Below are positions 26,423-37,993 of a DNA stretch of 64,000 bases, in pieces. Each line of letters begins with the position of its first letter. The first letter of the stretch is position 1. This stretch comes from Escherichia coli. Its GTDB lineage: Bacteria > Pseudomonadota > Gammaproteobacteria > Enterobacterales > Enterobacteriaceae. A program made the position numbers and the translations under genes. Location: NCBI RefSeq assembly GCF_016903815.1, contig NZ_CP069973.1; one strand, written 5' to 3'. The notes under the pieces were generated by a model. That model did no database searches, was not told where the DNA came from, and saw only the letters and a list, made by a program, of their open reading frames with translations.

Positions 26423-29225
<2,803 letters not shown>

Positions 29226-29427
29226 GCCTATTATTGGGTCCTTTGGTGAACGATCAACAAAGGGCCACTAGCACACCTGATTCCTCTCTAAATACCCTAT
29301 CCGAACCTTCTCTTTTGTAACGTTCTAAATATATTCCTAAAAACCTTCAATTCATTGTGACCACAAGTTTTTCTTCGTTTTTTCGTATGAAGATACTGTC
29401 ATTAAAATAATAGAAAAGGATTTTACG

Positions 29428-32400
29428 ATGAGCGGAAAACCGGCGGCGCGTCAGGGCGACATGACGCAGTATGGCGGTAGCATTGTCCAGGGTTCAGCCG
29501 GGGTGCGCATCGGTGCCCCCACCGGCGTGGCCTGTTCGGTGTGCCCCGGCGGGGTGACGTCCGGCCATCCGGTCAATCCGCTGCTCGGCGCGAAGGTCCT
29601 TCCCGGCGAAACCGACCTTGCCCTGCCCGGCCCGCTGCCGTTCATCCTCTCCCGCACCTACAGCAGTTACCGGACAAAAACGCCCGCGCCGGTGGGGAAC
29701 CTCGGCCCCGGCTGGAAAATGCCTGCGGATATCCGCTTACAGCTGCGCGATAACACACTGATACTCAGTGATAACGGCGGCAGAAGCCTGTATTTTGAGC
29801 ACCTGTTTCCCGGTGAGGACGGTTACAGCCGCAGCGAGTCACTCTGGCTGGTGCGCGGCGGCGTGGCGAAACTGGATGAAGGTCACCGGCTGGCCGCACT
29901 CTGGCAGGCGCTGCCGGAAGAGCTTCGCCTGAGTCCGCATCGTTATCTGGCGACGAACAGTCCGCAGGGGCCGTGGTGGGTACTCGGCTGGTGTGAGCGG
30001 GTGCCGGAGGCGGATGAGGTGCTGCCTGCGCCGCTGCCGCCGTACCGGGTACTGACCGGGCTGGTGGACCGCTTCGGGCGCACACAGACGTTCCACCGTG
30101 AGGCTGGCGGCGAAATCACCGGCGTGACGGATGGTGCCGGGCGTCACTTCCGGCTGGTACTGACCACGCAGGCGCAGCGGGCAGAAGAAGCCCGGCAGCA
30201 GGCCTCTTCCGGCGGGACGGAACCGTCCGCTTTTCCTGATACCCTGCCGGGTTACACCGAATATGGCCGGGACAACGGCATCCGTCTGTCTGCCGTGTGG
30301 CTGACGCACGACCCGGAATACCCGGAGAATTTACCTGCCGCGCCGCTGGTGCGCTATGGCTGGACGCCACGCGGCGAACTGGCGGCGGTGTATGACCGCA
30401 GCAATACACAGGTGCGCAGCTTTACTTACGATGATAAATACCGGGGCCGGATGGTGGCGCACCGTCACACGGGCCGGCCGGAAATCCGTTACCGTTACGA
30501 CAGCGACGGGCGGGTGACAGAACAGCTAAACCCGGCAGGCTTAAGCTACACGTATCAGTATGAGAAAGACCGCATCACCATCACCGACAGTATGGACCGC
30601 CGTGAAGTGCTGCACACGCAGGGCGAAGGCGGGCTGAAGCGGGTGGTGAAAAAGGAACACGCGGACGGCAGCGTCACGCAGAGTCAGTTTGATGCGGTGG
30701 GCAGGCTTAAGGCACAGACGGATGCCGCAGGCCGGACGACTGAGTACAGCCCGGATGTGGTGACGGGACTCATCACGCGCATCACCACACCGGATGGCAG
30801 GGCATCGGCATTTTACTATAACCACCACAACCAGTTAACGTCAGCCACCGGGCCTGACGGGCTGGAAATACGCCGGGAATATGATGAATCCGGCCGTCTG
30901 ATTCAGGAAACCGCACACAACGGCGATATCACCCGCTACCGTTATGATAATCCACACAGTGACTTACCCTGCGCAACGGAAGATGCCACCGGCAGCCGGA
31001 AAACCATGACATGGAGCCGTTACGGTCAGTTGCTGACCGTCACTGACTGTTCCGGTTATGTAACCCGTTATGACCATGACCGTTTTGGTCAGGTGACGGC
31101 GGTGCACCGCGAGGAAGGGCTGAGTCAGTACCGCGCATACGACAGCCGTGGACAGTTAATTGCGGTGAAAGACACGCAGGGCCATGAAACGCGGTATGAA
31201 TACAACGCCGCCGGTGACCTGACCGCCGTCATTGCCCCGGACGGCAGCAGAAACGGGACACAGTACGATGCGTGGGGAAAGGCCATCCGTACCACACAGG
31301 GCGGTCTGACGCGCAGTATGGAATACGATGCTGCCGGACGGGTCATCCGCCTGACCAGTGAAAACGGCAGCCACACCACCTTCCGTTACGATGTACTCGA
31401 CCGGCTGATACAGGAAACCGGCTTTGACGGCCGCACACAGCGTTATCACCACGACCTGACCGGCAAACTTATCCGCAGCGAGGATGAGGGGCTGGTCACC
31501 CACTGGCACTATGACGAAGCAGACCGCATCACACAGCGAACGGTGAATGGTGAAACCGCAGAACAGTGGCGGTACGACGAACGCGGCTGGCTGACACAAA
31601 TCAGCCATCTCAGCGAAGGCCACCGGGTGACGGTGCATTACGGGTATGATGAGAAAGGCCGCCTGACCGGTGAGCGCCAGACGGTGCATCACCCGCAGAC
31701 GGAAGCACTGCTCTGGCAGCATGAAACCAGACACGCTTACAACGCGCAGGGACTGGCGAACCGCTGTATACCGGACAGCCTGCCCGCCGTGGAATGGCTG
31801 ACTTACGGCAGCGGCTGGCTGGCAGGCATGAAACTCGGCGACACACCGCTGGTGGATTTCACCCGCGACCGCCTGCACCGGGAAACGCTGCGCAGCTTCG
31901 GCCGTTATGAACTCACCACCGCTTATACCTCTGCCGGGCAGTTACAGAGCCAGCACCTGAACAGCCTGCAGTATGACCGCGATTACACCTGGAACGACAA
32001 CGGCGAACTCATCCGCATCAGCAGCCCGCGACAGACCCGGAGTTACAGCTACAGCGACTCCGGCAGGCTGACCGGCGTCCACACCACCACCTCAAATCTG
32101 GATATCCGCATCCCGTATGCCACGGACCCGGCAGGCAACCGCCTGCCCGACCCGGAGCTGCACCCGGACATCACCCTCAGCATGTGGCCGGATAACCGTA
32201 TCGCCCGTGACGCGCACTATCTTTACCGGTATGACCGTCACGGCAGACTGACGGAGAAAACCGACCTCATCCCGGAAGGGGTTATCCGCACGGATGATGA
32301 GCGGACTCACCGGTACCATTACGACAGTCAGCACCGGCTGGTGCACTACACGCGGACACAATATGCAGAGCCGCTGGTCGAAAGTCGCTATCTTTACGAC

Positions 32401-33615
32401 CCGCTGGGCCGCAGGGTGGCAAAACGGGTGTGGCGGCGTGAACGGGACCTGACGGGCTGGATGTCGCTGTCACGGAAACCGGAAGTGACCTGGTACGGCT
32501 GGGACGGCGACCGGCTGACCACGATACAGAACGACAGAACCCGCATCCAGACGGTTTATCAGCCGGGGAGCTTCACGCCACTCATCAGGGTCGAAACCGC
32601 CACCGGTGAGCTGGCGAAAACGCAGCGCCGCAGCCTGGCGGATGCGCTTCAGCAGTCCGGCGGCGAAGACGGTGGCAGTGTGGTGTTCCCGCCGGTGCTG
32701 GTGCAGATGCTCGACCGGCTGGAAAGTGAAACCCTGGCTGACCGGGTGAGTGAGGAAAGCCGCCGCTGGCTGGCATCGTGCGGCCTGACGGTGGAGCAGA
32801 TGCAAAACCAGATGGACCCGGTGTACACGCCGGCGCGAAAAATCCACCTGTACCACTGCGACCATCGCGGCCTGCCGCTGGCGCTTGTCAGCACGGAAGG
32901 GGCAACAGAATGGTACGCAGAATACGATGAATGGGGTAACCAGCTGAGTGAGGATAACCCGCACCAGCTGCAGCAGCTCATCCGCCTGCCGGGTCAGCAG
33001 TATGATGAGGAGTCAGGCCTGTATTACAACCGCCACCGCTATTATGACCCGCTGCAGGGGCGGTATATCACTCAGGATCCGATTGGACTGAAGGGGGGAT
33101 GGAATTTTTATCAGTATCCGTTAAATCCGGTTCAGTATATAGATTCAATGGGACTGGCATCTAAATATGGACACTTAAATAATGGCGGATATGGAGCGAG
33201 ACCCAACAAACCGCCTACGCCCGATCCAAGTAAGTTGCCAGACATAGCGAAACAATTAAGACTGCCATATCCTATTGACCAGGCCAGTAGTGCGCCTAAT
33301 GTTTTCAAAACATTCTTCAGAGCATTAAGTCCTTACGATTACACACTGTATTGCAGGAAGTGGGTAAAACCCAATCTGACTTGTACGCCGCAGGATGATC
33401 CCCAGTATCCAGGGATGGAGACAAAGACAGCAAGTGATTACCTGCCACAGACAACTTGGCCAACAACTCAATTACCACCAGGATATACTTGTGCAGAACC
33501 CTATTTATTCCCAGACATTAATAAACCCGATGGGCCAGCAACAGCAGGGATAGATGATTTGGGTGAAATTTTAGCTAAAATGAAACAGAGAACATCGAGA
33601 GGAATAAGAAAATGA
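29428..33615 (+). CDS. rhsB: Rhs family polymorphic toxin (PAAR-like N-terminus, YD-repeat core, variable C-terminal toxin tip)
   Basis: 1395-aa track ORF; YD repeats; conserved core end ...[16 protein letters not shown] (DPIGL at 33076-33090); locus position after nikR. Confidence 0.93.
32701..33143 (+). repeat. Rhs core 3' segment, copy 1 of about 443-bp direct repeat
   Basis: Near-identical to 37551..37993 (same reading frame, a few substitutions). Confidence 0.85.
33091..33615 (+). other. variable C-terminal toxin domain of RhsB (after DPxGL motif), function unknown
   Basis: Sequence after DPIGL is AT-richer and Pro/Tyr/Cys-rich with no recognisable catalytic motif. Confidence 0.7.
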
Positions 33616-34181
33616 AAAGAGCTTTGTTCTTTTTGCTGATGATATTCGTTAGTTTTGGTGTTATAGCTAATTGCGAAACACAAGCTAAAGATCAAGATTG
33701 CTTTACCATTTTCACTAAGGGTACTATTTTTTCCGCGTTTCCTGTCTTAAATAATAAAACCATGTGGAGATGGTATCAGAATGAGGACATAGGTGAGTAT
33801 TATTGGCAAACAGAACTTGGTATATGTAAAAATAACAAATTCACACCAAGCGGGGCGAGACTCTTAATTCGCGTCGGATCACTACGCCTTAATGAAAATC
33901 ATGCAACCAAAGGAACGTTGCAGGAGTTGCTAAATACAGCAGAAAAAACGGCGTTTCTCGGCGATCGGTTTAGAAGTTATATAAGAGCGGGTATCTATCA
34001 AAAAAAGAGCAGTGATCCAGCTCAGTTGTTGGCAGTCCTTGATAATTCAATCATGGTTAAATATTTTAAAGATGAGAAGCCAACTTATGCTCGAATGACA
34101 GCACATCTCCCGAACAAAGATGAGTCTTACGAATGTTTAACAAAAGTACAGCATGAACTGCTTCGTAGTGAAGAAAAATAA
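33612..34181 (+). CDS. putative cognate immunity protein of RhsB toxin tip; has N-terminal signal peptide
   Basis: ATG overlaps rhsB stop (ATGA at 33612-33615); 189 aa; [20 protein letters not shown] signal-like N-terminus. Confidence 0.65.
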
Positions 34182-34202
34182 AATCTCTTCCTGAGAAAAT
34201 AA

Positions 34203-34340
34203 ATTAACTATTCGAAAAAATATGTTCTTAATGGGTATCCAGGAACACCAGAAGGTCGATTTGGAAAAATGGATTCCGATGGTAAGAATATCATATATTC
34301 TGAATGTAATGTTTTACCCACAACTTTTGAGATTCGATAG
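34203..34340 (+). pseudogene. possible relic of a toxin C-terminal tail (open frame without start)
   Basis: 45-codon open frame ...YSKKYVLNGYPGTPEGRFGKMDSDGKNIIYSECNVLPTTFEIR ending 10 nt before the next small ORF start. Confidence 0.3.
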
Positions 34341-34349
34341 GTGTAGAGC

Positions 34350-34697
34350 ATGAGAAACTCACTAATATTACTTATTATGATATTGTTTACAATATCACAC
34401 TCAGTATTTGGAAAAGAAAATTCAGTGGAAATTTTAGTAAATAGTCGTGAAATGGCTTTGGAATTATCATATGTTTATATTAAATATATATACGGGAAAG
34501 AAAAAGCAGAATTTCAGAAACCATATAGTATTACAGATGACAATAATTGTTGGAAAATCGAGGGAAAACAACCGAAGACGTTAGGAGGAAATTTTACAAT
34601 ACTAATAGCGAAAAAAGATGGGCAAGCGTTGGATGTAATACACAAAATAATCCACTGTTCAAACGATTCAAATATTTTACCAAGGTGTGTTTCATAA
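34350..34697 (+). CDS. small secreted NTF2-like putative orphan immunity protein
   Basis: 115-aa track ORF with signal peptide; paralogous to ORF 36296..36562. Confidence 0.6.
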   Translation: MRNSLILLIMILFTISHSVFGKENSVEILVNSREMALELSYVYIKYIYGKEKAEFQKPYSITDDNNCWKIEGKQPKTLGGNFTILIAKKDGQALDVIHKIIHCSNDSNILPRCVS

Positions 34698-35279
34698 CTA
34701 TTTTGTGTACAATATGACTCTACATATCGACGAAAAAACCACTTGATTTGACAGGAACACATTCAAAAAAATTTCTTTTTCATTTCAGGAGCGATTTTCA
34801 TCTGTTACTTGAAGTATCTGTGAGATTAAGTGACTCCCCCTAACGTCGTACTAAATAGTAATTACTGGCCATACCGGGAGCAGTATTCGGCGCTTCCCAC
34901 ATGCAGCAGAATAACCGCATCAGCGAAGATGTATTGTATTTTTACTATCACAATGTGTACGGACGGTTTATGGAAAAGAATGAACATTAGATACGCGATG
35001 CGGCGGCAGATTACACGGTTATCACTACGATAGCCAATACTGGCTGGTGCATTACCGCCGTGAACAATAGGACGCCGTACTGCTGGAAATTTCTTACCTT
35101 TATGACTCCCCGCACCGCCGTATCGGGAAACGGGAAGCAGTCAAGATGAGGCTGATATAATGTGTGGAATGCCTGAGTATTTTTAGAATAGAGGGTAATA
35201 TGTTTGATAGAATATATCTTGGTGATCGACCAATAAAAAAATTGAATTTGATTTATGGAGCAAACAAATTAGAATTCAG

Positions 35280-35564
35280 GTGAATTTAATCTCAAGGATA
35301 GCCTATGGTACAACAGAATGGAATTTTTATAATAATGAAGACTTAGAAAATGGTTATTTAGTATTTACCGATGTTACTTTCTTTAATATAATACCTAATG
35401 GCTCCATTCCAGATGATTATATAGTTTCAATAATAACAGATAAAGTCAATGTTGAATGTTTTGAATCAACTATAGTTGCTGTTGGTCAAATTCGAAACAC
35501 AAATGTTGGTGACATTGATAATATTGGTGAATGTCAAATTCTCATCAGGTATAAAGACCGCTAG
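35280..35564 (+). CDS. hypothetical small protein, possibly 3' part of a split gene
   Basis: 94-aa track ORF starting at GTG that overlaps the TGA of a 27-codon ORF (35200..35283) in a GTGA junction. Confidence 0.35.
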   Translation: MNLISRIAYGTTEWNFYNNEDLENGYLVFTDVTFFNIIPNGSIPDDYIVSIITDKVNVECFESTIVAVGQIRNTNVGDIDNIGECQILIRYKDR

Positions 35565-35848
35565 ATTGAGAATAAACTCAAAGAAAAAATAATTGAATAA
35601 CCATGTCAGTTATAGACATTTTAGATGGAACGAACCAGAGAAGGTCATGCCTCCGAGCTGGGTTATGTGGACACGGAGCTTTAGCGTAGTGAACTCAACG
35701 AAGCAAGCCGGAAACCTGCCAGCCCTTATCAGCACGTAAGGGACAACAGCGTAGTACGCAGAATAATCCTACCCACGTAGTATGGACACAGGCCTAAGCG
35801 AGGTTCTGGTTTTCAAATTTTTCAGGAGTTAGATGATTGGAGGAACAG

Positions 35849-36214
35849 ATGATAAGAATCGCATTTTTAATAACCAATAAATTTCTTGAGATAGATAGTA
35901 CCACTCTTGCTGGATATGATTTTAGCGGGATGAATCTACATCGTGCCACCCTCAATGGTTATTGTCTTGATGGGGCGAAATTTGAAAAAACTCATTTAAG
36001 AAATGTAATGATTCAACATACATCAACTAGAAATGCTGTCTTTCACAATGCGGCTCTGATGAATGCTATTCTGAATAACTCAGATTTCACTGGAAGTGAT
36101 TGTAGTAATTCAAGGTCAATAGGTGAAAATTTTAAAGCAATAGATAATCATGGGAAAGATATAATAAATGGAAAAGGATTGTCTAATGTTTGCAAAATAC
36201 ATGACAACGTATAA
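35849..36214 (+). CDS. pentapeptide-repeat protein (possible immunity/target-protection protein)
   Basis: Track ORF 35837..36214; ATG at 35849 preceded by ggagg; tandem 5-residue periodicity ATLNG YCLDG AKFEK THLRN ... AALMN AILNN SDFTG. Confidence 0.7.
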   Translation: MIRIAFLITNKFLEIDSTTLAGYDFSGMNLHRATLNGYCLDGAKFEKTHLRNVMIQHTSTRNAVFHNAALMNAILNNSDFTGSDCSNSRSIGENFKAIDNHGKDIINGKGLSNVCKIHDNV

Positions 36215-36295
36215 GAAAATATTATTCAGAACCTATGTGATTGTATCTTTGTTTTTACATACAACACATGGGCGCAGTGTAATAATATTATTATA

Positions 36296-36562
36296 ATGCG
36301 CAAGTATGAATGTGAGGGGAAATACACCGTTAGAAATTTGGTAAAAAATAAAGCTATAGCATTGGAATTAGCTGAGATGTATGTTAAAAATCGTTATGGG
36401 CATGATGCCGCAGAAGAAGAAAAACCATACAAAATCATGGAATTACCAACAAGTTGGATTGTTGAAGGCACCATTGAATCAGACCAAATTGCTGGTAGGG
36501 TTTTTATTATAGAAATAGGCAAAAATGACGGGAGAATTCTAAATTTTGGCCACGGAAAATAA
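36296..36562 (+). CDS. NTF2-like putative orphan immunity protein, paralog of 34350..34697 lacking signal peptide
   Basis: 88-aa track ORF; aligns by eye with the 34350 ORF (ALELAEMYVKNRYG.../KPY.I...W..EG...DG..L). Confidence 0.55.
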   Translation: MRKYECEGKYTVRNLVKNKAIALELAEMYVKNRYGHDAAEEEKPYKIMELPTSWIVEGTIESDQIAGRVFIIEIGKNDGRILNFGHGK

Positions 36563-36666
36563 GTATGTAAGGATAAACAAACATCGTGTGTGCTGATGGC
36601 AGAGTAGGTGGAGGACTCCAGACAGTCAAACGATAGAAAAAGATAGTCTTTATGGAGGTTCCTGCA

Positions 36667-37509
36667 ATGTCAAATACATACCAGAAAAGAAAGGCAAGTA
36701 AAGAGTATGGTTTATATAATCAATGTAAGAAACTAAATGATGATGAATTATTTCGCTTACTTGATGATCACAATTCCTTGAAAAGGATTTCATCTGCCAG
36801 AGTATTACAGTTAAGAGGTGGTCAAGACGCTGTTAGATTGGCAATTGAGTTCTGCTCTGATAAAAATTATATCCGTAGAGATATCGGAGCATTTATACTC
36901 GGGCAAATAAAAATTTGCAAAAAATGCAAAGATAATGTGTTTAATATTTTGAACAATATGGCATTGAATGATAAGAGCGCTTGCGTTCGAGCTACGGCAA
37001 TCGAGTCAACGGCTCAGCGATGCAAGAAAAACCCAATTTATTCACCTAAAATAGTAGAACAATCTCAAATTACTGCTTTTGATAAATCGACTAATGTCAG
37101 ACGTGCTACAGCATTTGCTATTTCTGTTATCAATGATAAAGCAACAATTCCACTATTGATTAATCTGTTAAAAGATCCAAATGGAGATGTCAGAAACTGG
37201 GCCGCATTTGCAATAAATATCAATAAATATGATAATAGTGATATTAGGGATTGTTTTGTGGAGATGCTTCAGGATAAAAATGAGGAAGTCCGTATTGAAG
37301 CAATAATCGGACTTTCCTACAGAAAAGATAAAAGGGTTTTATCTGTTTTATGCGATGAGTTAAAAAAAAATACTGTTTATGATGATATCATTGAAGCTGC
37401 GGGTGAATTAGGTGATAAAACGCTACTTCCTGTTTTAGATACTATGTTGTACAAGTTTGATGACAATGAAATTATAACTTCCGCTATTGATAAGCTGAAG
37501 CGTTCATAG
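36667..37509 (+). CDS. HEAT-repeat (PBS-lyase type) protein, YibA-like putative Rhs immunity protein
   Basis: Track ORF 36652..37509; ATG at 36667 has ggagg RBS and gives 280 aa; repeated D.N..VR..AA.AL motifs. Confidence 0.8.
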   Translation: MSNTYQKRKASKEYGLYNQCKKLNDDELFRLLDDHNSLKRISSARVLQLRGGQDAVRLAIEFCSDKNYIRRDIGAFILGQIKICKKCKDNVFNILNNMALNDKSACVRATAIESTAQRCKKNPIYSPKIVEQSQITAFDKSTNVRRATAFAISVINDKATIPLLINLLKDPNGDVRNWAAFAININKYDNSDIRDCFVEMLQDKNEEVRIEAIIGLSYRKDKRVLSVLCDELKKNTVYDDIIEAAGELGDKTLLPVLDTMLYKFDDNEIITSAIDKLKRS

Positions 37510-37550
37510 CGTGAGTTGCCTATGCACAGTGGGGGATTCCCGCCGGCACG

Positions 37551-37993
37551 GTGCAGATGCTCGACCGGCTGGAAAGTGAAATCCTGGCTGACCGGGTGAG
37601 TGAGGAAAGCCGCCGCTGGCTGGCATCGTGCGGCCTGACGGTGAAGCAGATGCAAAACCAGATGGACCCGGTGTACACGCCGGCGCGAAAAATCCACCTG
37701 TACCACTGCGACCATCGCGGCCTGCCGCTGGTGCTTATCAGCACGGAAGGGGCAACAGAATGGTGCGCAGAATACGATGAATGGGGCAACCTGCTGAATG
37801 AAGAGAACCCGCAACAGCTGCAGCAACTCATCCGCCTGCCGGGTCAGCAGTATGATGAGGAGTCCGGCCTGTATTACAACCGCCACCGCTATTATGATCC
37901 GCTGCAGGGGAGGTATATCACTCAGGATTCGATTGGGCTGAAGGGGGGATGGAATTTTTATGAGTATCCGTTGAATCCGGTTCAGTATATAGA
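37551..37993 (+). repeat. Rhs core 3' segment, copy 2 of direct repeat
   Basis: Matches 32701..33143; DPIGL motif altered to DSIGL in this copy. Confidence 0.85.

Follow-up and report, generated by a model that had tools for sequence, protein, structure and literature searches.

Probable debris of two Tox-JAB-2 (DUF4329)/Imm-NTF2-2 modules downstream of rhs at an Escherichia coli rhsB locus

Results

We examined a stretch of 64,000 nucleotides from Escherichia coli contig NZ_CP069973.1 (RefSeq assembly GCF_016903815.1), hereafter the window, focusing on positions 34203..36562, downstream of a full-length rhs gene at the rhsB locus. This segment is very probably debris, made up of two degraded modules that each paired an Rhs toxin of the Tox-JAB-2 (DUF4329) class with an immunity gene of the Imm-NTF2-2 family. 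Of each toxin only the last codons survive (relic 1 in module 1, relic 2 in module 2), and the immunity genes, represented by open reading frames ORF1 and ORF2, both carry lesions. An earlier note, made from the letters of this DNA alone, had proposed for ORF1 that an ancestral toxin gene was truncated and its immunity gene left in place, and comparison with intact toxins now bears this out.

Toxin ancestry of relic 1

Relic 1 (34203..34340, plus strand) is unannotated in RefSeq. Its frame follows a TAA at 34200-34202, runs through 45 sense codons (34203..34337) and closes with a TAG at 34338-34340; the 5′ end has no start codon. A spacer of 9 nt leads from the stop to the ATG of ORF1 at 34350, and an AGGTG Shine-Dalgarno-like motif (34339-34343) overlaps the stop codon, 6 nt upstream of that ATG. 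The frame had been described as a start-less run of 45 codons ending 10 nt upstream of ORF1, which is right as to the frame, but the gap is one nucleotide shorter and there is an internal ATG at codon 23.

Intact toxins were reached through contigs carrying moderately diverged ORF1 homologues together with the gene that precedes each of them. In contigs L013 and L014, from two E. coli drafts, the Rhs frame runs uninterrupted through at least 756 codons and ends in INYSKKHVLNGYLGTPEGRFGKMDFDGKNIIYSECNVLPTTFEIR. Relic 1 is identical to this Rhs-DUF4329 tail at 42/45 positions (93%), and the same 9-nt spacer is followed there by an intact Imm-NTF2-2 gene of 100 codons, P0007. In the metagenome contigs L008 and L009, an uninterrupted frame runs from the end of the Rhs core through a C-terminal domain of 159 residues that matches PF14220 DUF4329 (E 6e-32), and the end of this domain agrees with relic 1 at 38/45 positions (84%, E 3e-26). 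Identity reaches 37/45 (82%) with the tail in contigs L016 and L017 and 33/45 (73%) with the toxin tail of Rahnella sp. PD12R (P0031), which has an intact immunity gene 18 nt downstream. Every one of these toxins is followed by an Imm-NTF2-2 gene at the position of ORF1, and the placement directly 3′ of the intact DUF4329 toxin end recurs in L013, L016, L008, L011, and K-12.

The breakpoint is equally consistent, with DNA homology beginning exactly at 34203 in three sets comprising six contigs (L008/L009, L013/L014, and L016/L017). The 21 nt immediately upstream (34182..34202) show no significant likeness to the FSPAD-coding DNA of L008, as 1760 of 5000 shuffles score as well, and the boundary of relic 1 was therefore kept at 34203. 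Judged by these tail identities, relic 1 is the tail of a truncated Tox-JAB-2/DUF4329 Rhs toxin whose immunity gene was left behind; the search for homologues in toxin C-termini that had been suggested as a check thus found them. A barnase-like RNase tail ending in "...TFEIR", which had been the initial guess for relic 1, was ruled out by the DUF4329 match and the JAMM evidence given below.

A frame of 45 codons could also have no toxin ancestry and be either a chance opening in AT-rich intergenic DNA or an independent small gene or leader peptide. The region is ~31% GC, and a stop-free run of this length is, by rough estimate, ~3% likely from composition. Searches with relic 1 on its own were also thin: a word-indexed search of 5.8 billion proteins with the 45-residue query returned only two fragments of 38-39 residues, and an NCBIfam scan of ORF1, ORF2, and relic 1 gave only noise, since the family is not modeled in that database. 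The Pfam match of relic 1 alone is weak (E 0.19), but DUF4329 is its sole match, and the aligned model positions (86-111 of 116) are at the C-terminal end, as expected of a toxin tail. Against chance, relic 1 matches the final 45 residues of DUF4329 Rhs toxins from four independent sets end to end, at 73-93% protein identity, and occupies the same place with respect to an Imm-NTF2-2 gene. These tail identities would leave the chance frame a negligible probability, and we regard it as already refuted.

The position of the breakpoint also indicates what the toxin lost. In an alignment of 31 DUF4329 domains, the residues E52, G55, H96, T97, H98, G99, S111, D114, Y126, L127, T129, and P130 were invariant. 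Relic 1 corresponds to residues 115-159 of the 159-residue toxin domain and begins one residue after the last catalytic Asp, D114; the catalytic signature E52/H96/H98/S111/D114 lies wholly upstream of the breakpoint, so no active site is present in relic 1. In addition, the window, B-strain, and O157 copies all have Pro at the invariant Leu127. The parental DUF4329 domain has the JAB/MPN (JAMM) fold, of which relic 1 corresponds to the final helix and three strands. Relic 2, like relic 1, lies beyond the catalytic E, H-T-H, and S-x-x-D residues, and neither retains any zinc-site residue. On this alignment, both stubs are incapable of toxicity and relic 1 is catalytically dead. Searching PDB sequences with the toxin domain brought up nothing beyond nanobody noise.

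These assignments agree with the classification of Zhang et al. 2012, in which DUF4329 is Tox-JAB-2, with the signature E, H[ST]H, S, D, and Imm-NTF2-2 is its immunity partner (PMC3482391). We also note four cysteines (GAC-x3-4-C, ICKD, and CPxG; residues 10, 15, 57, and 83 of the L013 C-terminal domain) at matching positions in the L013 toxin, K-12 RhsB, and RhsD. This set is confined to E. coli-type DUF4329 toxins and is not family-wide; it would be compatible with disulfides in an extracytoplasmic protein.

ORF1, the orphan immunity gene of module 1

ORF1 (34350..34697, plus strand, 115 residues) matches PF15631 Imm-NTF2-2 (E 1.1e-17) over model positions 1-67 of 68, with the domain intact to residue 99, and shares 85% identity with P0007, the immunity partner of the L013 toxin. 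It retains its ATG, the Shine-Dalgarno-like motif, and a predicted N-terminal export signal with the strongly hydrophobic segment ILLIMILFTI (mean Kyte-Doolittle 3.3). The lesion is at the other end, where mapping against six relatives revealed a 2-nt (AC) deletion in an (AC)n run at ~34640, which turns the ending ...VIHTK* into ...VIHK followed by 16 unrelated residues. RefSeq entry WP_223364206.1 starts the gene at an internal GTG at 34425 (90 residues), which drops the signal peptide; the intact homologues P0007, P0068, and the Rahnella protein all have this signal peptide.

An AlphaFold2 (AF2) model of ORF1, with a predicted local distance difference test score (pLDDT) of 88 and a low-confidence tail at residues 100-115, predicts a single long helix packed on a four-stranded sheet. 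This arrangement fits the broad cystatin/NTF2-like class, not NTF2 specifically, and the modeled fold appears to have its nearest counterparts in cystatin and PepSY, both peptidase-inhibitor domains. The description of both proteins as NTF2-like holds for the Pfam family assignment; as a statement about fold, the model would support it loosely.

The same immunity gene is damaged in other ways elsewhere. In B strains the ATG has become ACG, and in O157:H7 codon 29 has changed from TTA to TAA. In L008 and L009 the gene (L008 737..997, L009 645..905) has a +1 frameshift in two independent samples, downstream of an open toxin frame, so that either this module is itself a silent orphan or the two assemblies share an error in a homopolymer run. 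In strain 98224 (contig L004), the equivalent of 34360..39179 is missing, with the insertion sequence (IS) IS1 at the junction; relic 1 remains there with just the first 10 nt of ORF1, and the rest of ORF1, the DUF6258 gene, the yhhH allele, yibA, and the orphan rhs fragment are gone. The array as a whole is dispensable, as its loss from strain 98224 shows. Because lineages differ in their knock-outs (start loss, nonsense, frameshifts, and gene absence next to IS1), selection on the orphan would be weak at best, and the overall picture is of an ORF1 that is probably under weak or absent selection.

ORF1 might even so be a working orphan immunity gene against L013-type Tox-JAB-2 toxins, with the stub kept only for the ribosome-binding site of ORF1 and possibly a promoter. 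Such a gene would differ from the debris described above in current function only. The intact start, ribosome-binding motif, hydrophobic signal, and Pfam domain are in its favor, as is the distribution of module 1, which occurs in 847 of 5426 complete E. coli genomes and at two different rhs loci. The matching toxin is present in E. coli drafts, and orphan immunity proteins of Serratia are reported to protect against non-self Rhs effectors (PMC10539506). Several observations point the other way. The window allele is without the nearly universal C-terminal H-x-K end, the gene is knocked out differently in the B strain, O157, and L008, and it is absent from strain 98224. A promoter and terminator scan found 15 promoter-like sites where 12.7 were expected by chance, thus no excess, and zero terminators. 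None of the 5426 complete E. coli genomes has a cognate toxin body at > ~67% DNA identity, and exposure may be rare; this toxin subtype was found only in E. coli drafts, metagenome contigs, and Rahnella. We therefore consider a protective role for ORF1 today possible, if somewhat unlikely.

Module 2 and the yhhH allele

RefSeq names both ORF1 and ORF2 NTF2 fold immunity protein, flagging the second as frameshifted. ORF2 (36296..36562, 88 residues) matches PF15631 over the full model (1-68 of 68, E 4.2e-23) and is 90% identical to K-12 YhhH. Its ATG is the internal Met40 of a yhhH-type gene, present in the window as an Imm-NTF2-2 pseudogene (36186..36562, plus strand). Relative to K-12 yhhH, a 4-nt (TTTG) deletion between 36247 and 36248 has split the export signal from the domain, and the yhhH-type N-terminal hydrophobic segment (KKILFR...VIVSLF...) is encoded from ~36186 in the other frame. 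ORF2 is without a signal peptide because this deletion put the N-terminal segment out of frame. The earlier observation that only ORF1 has a signal peptide accordingly stands for the frames as drawn, but as a difference between paralogues it dissolves into a frameshift artefact.

A toxin remnant had been recognized at ORF1 only, but ORF2 has one as well. Relic 2 (36128..36214, plus strand) comprises the last 28 codons and stop of a K-12-type RhsB toxin (Tox-JAB-2/DUF4329), and its protein tail, NFKAIDNHGKDIINGKGLSNVCKIHDNV, is identical at 20/28 residues (E 1e-13) to the RhsB tail, NFKAIDNHGKEITNRKGLPNVCRVHGNM. The yhhH-type gene overlaps relic 2, as in K-12. By DNA comparison, homology to K-12 begins only at 36128, and 36128..37013 is 92.3% identical to the 3′ end of K-12 rhsB together with yhhH and the HEAT-repeat gene. 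RefSeq labels relic 2 "pentapeptide repeat-containing protein, missing N-terminus," a misannotation due to its in-frame fusion to a truncated pentapeptide-repeat gene.

ORF1 and ORF2 share the conserved core that the earlier note had pointed out, as the proposed alignment was significant (29/76 identical, 38%, E 1e-14). Lying 1.6 kb apart on the same strand and belonging to the same Pfam family, they could in principle derive from local tandem duplication of one immunity gene. Their mutual identity of just 38-41% argues against this, given that ORF2 is so much closer to YhhH and ORF1 to P0007. Each ORF adjoins the tail of its own Tox-JAB-2 toxin, and the two toxin types, represented by the K-12 RhsB C-terminal domain and the L008-type DUF4329 toxin, are 49% identical. 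Moreover, module 1 belongs to an O157 rhsC-type block and module 2 is the resident K-12-type rhsB tip. Tandem duplication is already contradicted by these comparisons and is very improbable; the two genes are relatives in one family that arrived as separately acquired cassettes.

Imm-NTF2-2 family features

An exhaustive HMMER search with the ORF1 domain yielded 168 representative clusters at E <= 0.001, the majority of which fall well short of 50% identity. In Zhang et al., by comparison, the family is given as "E. coli only" (PMC3482391). For 142 of the 168 representatives (homologues P0068-P0209), we examined the signal and the C-terminal end. A strongly hydrophobic segment lies within the first 40 residues in 103 of the 142, a lipobox-like Cys is present in 27, and the protein ends exactly at H-x-[K/R/E] in 114. 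Imm-NTF2-2 proteins, as these counts indicate, would be exported as a rule. Set against this norm of an export signal and an H-x-[K/R/E] end, ORF1 has the signal and not the end, and ORF2 has the end with its signal out of frame. Each fails one of the two family features, and both are therefore damaged members.

Origin of the arrangement

The window at 33600..36700 is 100% identical to E. coli strain 7/2 and to many other human isolates, and in those genomes the matching stretch is flanked by nikR and yhhJ, at the rhsB locus. Window positions 29426..35625 are collinear with the O157:H7 rhsC locus at 95.9% identity, in the order rhs, ybfC, relic 1, ORF1, a degenerate core fragment, and DUF6258. 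The rhs core (29000..33129) is 95.7% identical to K-12 rhsB, which the window again matches from 36128 onward. The ybfC/relic 1 junction is identical in all rows inspected out of the 847 complete genomes that carry module 1, from which it follows that the truncation of relic 1 is old and was inherited within the block.

The homologies, the breakpoints, the pairing with immunity genes, and the lesions come straight from the alignments; the order of events that follows is our inference. Each module would once have been the 3′ end of a complete rhs gene together with its immunity gene. Newer tip/immunity cassettes may then have recombined onto the rhs core, pushing older tips downstream, and later deletions would have removed the core and nearly all of each toxin domain. 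In the simplest account, most of the resident RhsB tip gave way at this locus to an rhsC-type tip block, and of the older tip only the last 28 codons stayed, together with yhhH. ORF1 would survive as an at most weakly selected orphan immunity gene, perhaps able to neutralise L013-type Rhs toxins from competing E. coli.

Gene content around the modules

The array 3′ of the full-length rhs gene consists of small genes, gene fragments, and IS remnants, and is AT-rich, with 31-40% GC vs 60-65% in the rhs core. All features that follow are on the plus strand unless stated. The rhs gene itself (29428..33615, 1395 residues; RefSeq: RHS element core protein) has a C-terminal tip of the O157 rhsC-locus type. 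A ybfC-type gene (33612..34181, 189 residues), whose counterpart at this position in B and O157 strains is annotated "protein YbfC," is the presumed immunity partner of this current tip; 21 nt separate its stop codon from relic 1. Downstream of ORF1, tblastn with the window Rhs protein located a degenerate Rhs core fragment (~residues 919-1000) at 34901..35133 (E 6e-11, two frames), with a frameshift and an in-frame stop, which joins no toxin tip.

The DUF6258 gene that comes next (35200..35564) is frameshifted: MFDRIY... begins at 35200, and the remaining ORF covers only 35280..35564. In the B strain the gene is intact, with 120 residues (L002 7059..7418). Because DUF6258 is also found in a Rahnella poly-immunity array (L011 1847..2173), downstream of a Tox-JAB-2/Imm-NTF2-2 pair, the window gene, too, is probably an orphan immunity gene.

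Where the O157-type block gives way to the K-12-type block, the junction zone contains a remnant of ~70 bp from the end of an IS3-family element (35758..35827, strand not assigned), with 90-95% identity to IS3-like ends in thousands of records. A group II intron remnant considered for 35600..35800 was dropped; 35758..35827 matches this IS3-family end, and the remainder is unmatched. The truncated pentapeptide-repeat gene (35837..36127; pentapeptide families E 3e-7; RefSeq: partial, missing C-terminus) reads in frame into relic 2, forming an ORF of 125 residues at 35837..36214. After module 2 come a yibA-type HEAT-repeat gene (36652..37509), an orphan rhs core/tip fragment (37551..38216), IS1, and an ISAs1 H-repeat remnant. 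An Rfam scan of 33000..40500 gave no matches, and PADLOC found nothing.

Discussion

Earlier work has already described the displacement of Rhs tips, orphan immunity genes, and the pairing of Tox-JAB-2 with Imm-NTF2-2. C-terminal displacement yields arrays of dissociated Rhs tips (Jackson et al. 2009, PMC2935791), and displaced tips or orphan toxin-immunity modules downstream of rhs have also been described by Poole et al. 2011 (PMC3150448) and Koskiniemi et al. 2014 (PMC3967940). The window modules resemble these in lying in an AT-rich array 3′ of a full-length rhs gene, in forming a series of cassettes that each bring an immunity gene, with core fragments and IS remnants scattered among them, and in that the present rhs tip is not the one found at this locus in K-12. 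They differ in what is left. Typical orphans keep a stretch of core and an entire toxin domain and can recombine back, whereas the stubs in the window are 45 and 28 codons long, with no core attached and no catalytic residues, and are for that reason not reactivatable by recombination. They likewise recall the Tox-JAB-2/Imm-NTF2-2 pairs of K-12, RhsB-YhhH and RhsD-YbbC: ORF1 and ORF2 both belong to Imm-NTF2-2, both relics have their homologues at the C-terminal end of DUF4329 toxin domains bearing the E, H-T-H, S, D signature, and module 2 is the RhsB-YhhH pair itself, but the toxin halves are reduced to non-catalytic stubs.

Some points weigh against reading the segment as debris of displaced tips. 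The stubs come without a core piece and without a whole tip, unlike classical displaced Rhs tips, so extra deletion steps must be assumed, and their mechanism is invisible in the sequence. The intact relatives are truncated by their contigs (L013 begins inside the rhs gene), and a complete deliverable toxin is thus putative. Finally, the ratio of nonsynonymous to synonymous polymorphism (pN/pS) in E. coli copies of relic 1 and ORF1 is 0.4-0.7, which, coming from only 3-6 substitutions, settles neither neutrality nor weak selection.

The surviving immunity genes also bear on where the toxins might act. In the literature, DUF4329 has been named a putative nuclease or RNase by analogy only, without experimental support. 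The JAMM/MPN metallopeptidases (JAMM1, AMSH, Rpn11, BRCC36, and CBASS Cap3) and RadC share the fold of the toxin domain; unlike them, DUF4329 has no known biochemical activity in the literature, and the window relics keep none of the zinc-site residues. Export of the immunity protein points to toxin action in the periplasm or cell envelope. Taking together the exported family, the cystatin/PepSY-like modeled fold of ORF1, the JAMM fold of the toxin, and the shared cysteines, we raise tentatively, and as less probable than not, that Rhs toxins of the Tox-JAB-2/DUF4329 class work as metallopeptidases in the periplasm or cell envelope and are blocked by an exported inhibitor, rather than cytoplasmic RNases or nucleases. 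ORF1 could then remain a functional orphan shield.

As an instance, the segment matters little: it is ordinary Rhs-locus debris and one more case of tip displacement leaving orphan immunity genes. It does call for corrections to the annotation, namely an entry for the stub at 34203..34340, which has none, a new label for the mislabeled RhsB tail at 36128..36214, and an upstream start for ORF1. Across lineages, the locus offers a natural series of immunity-gene decay. The periplasmic hint is a testable one, in that the widespread and uncharacterised class of DUF4329 toxins may act in the periplasm as peptidases.

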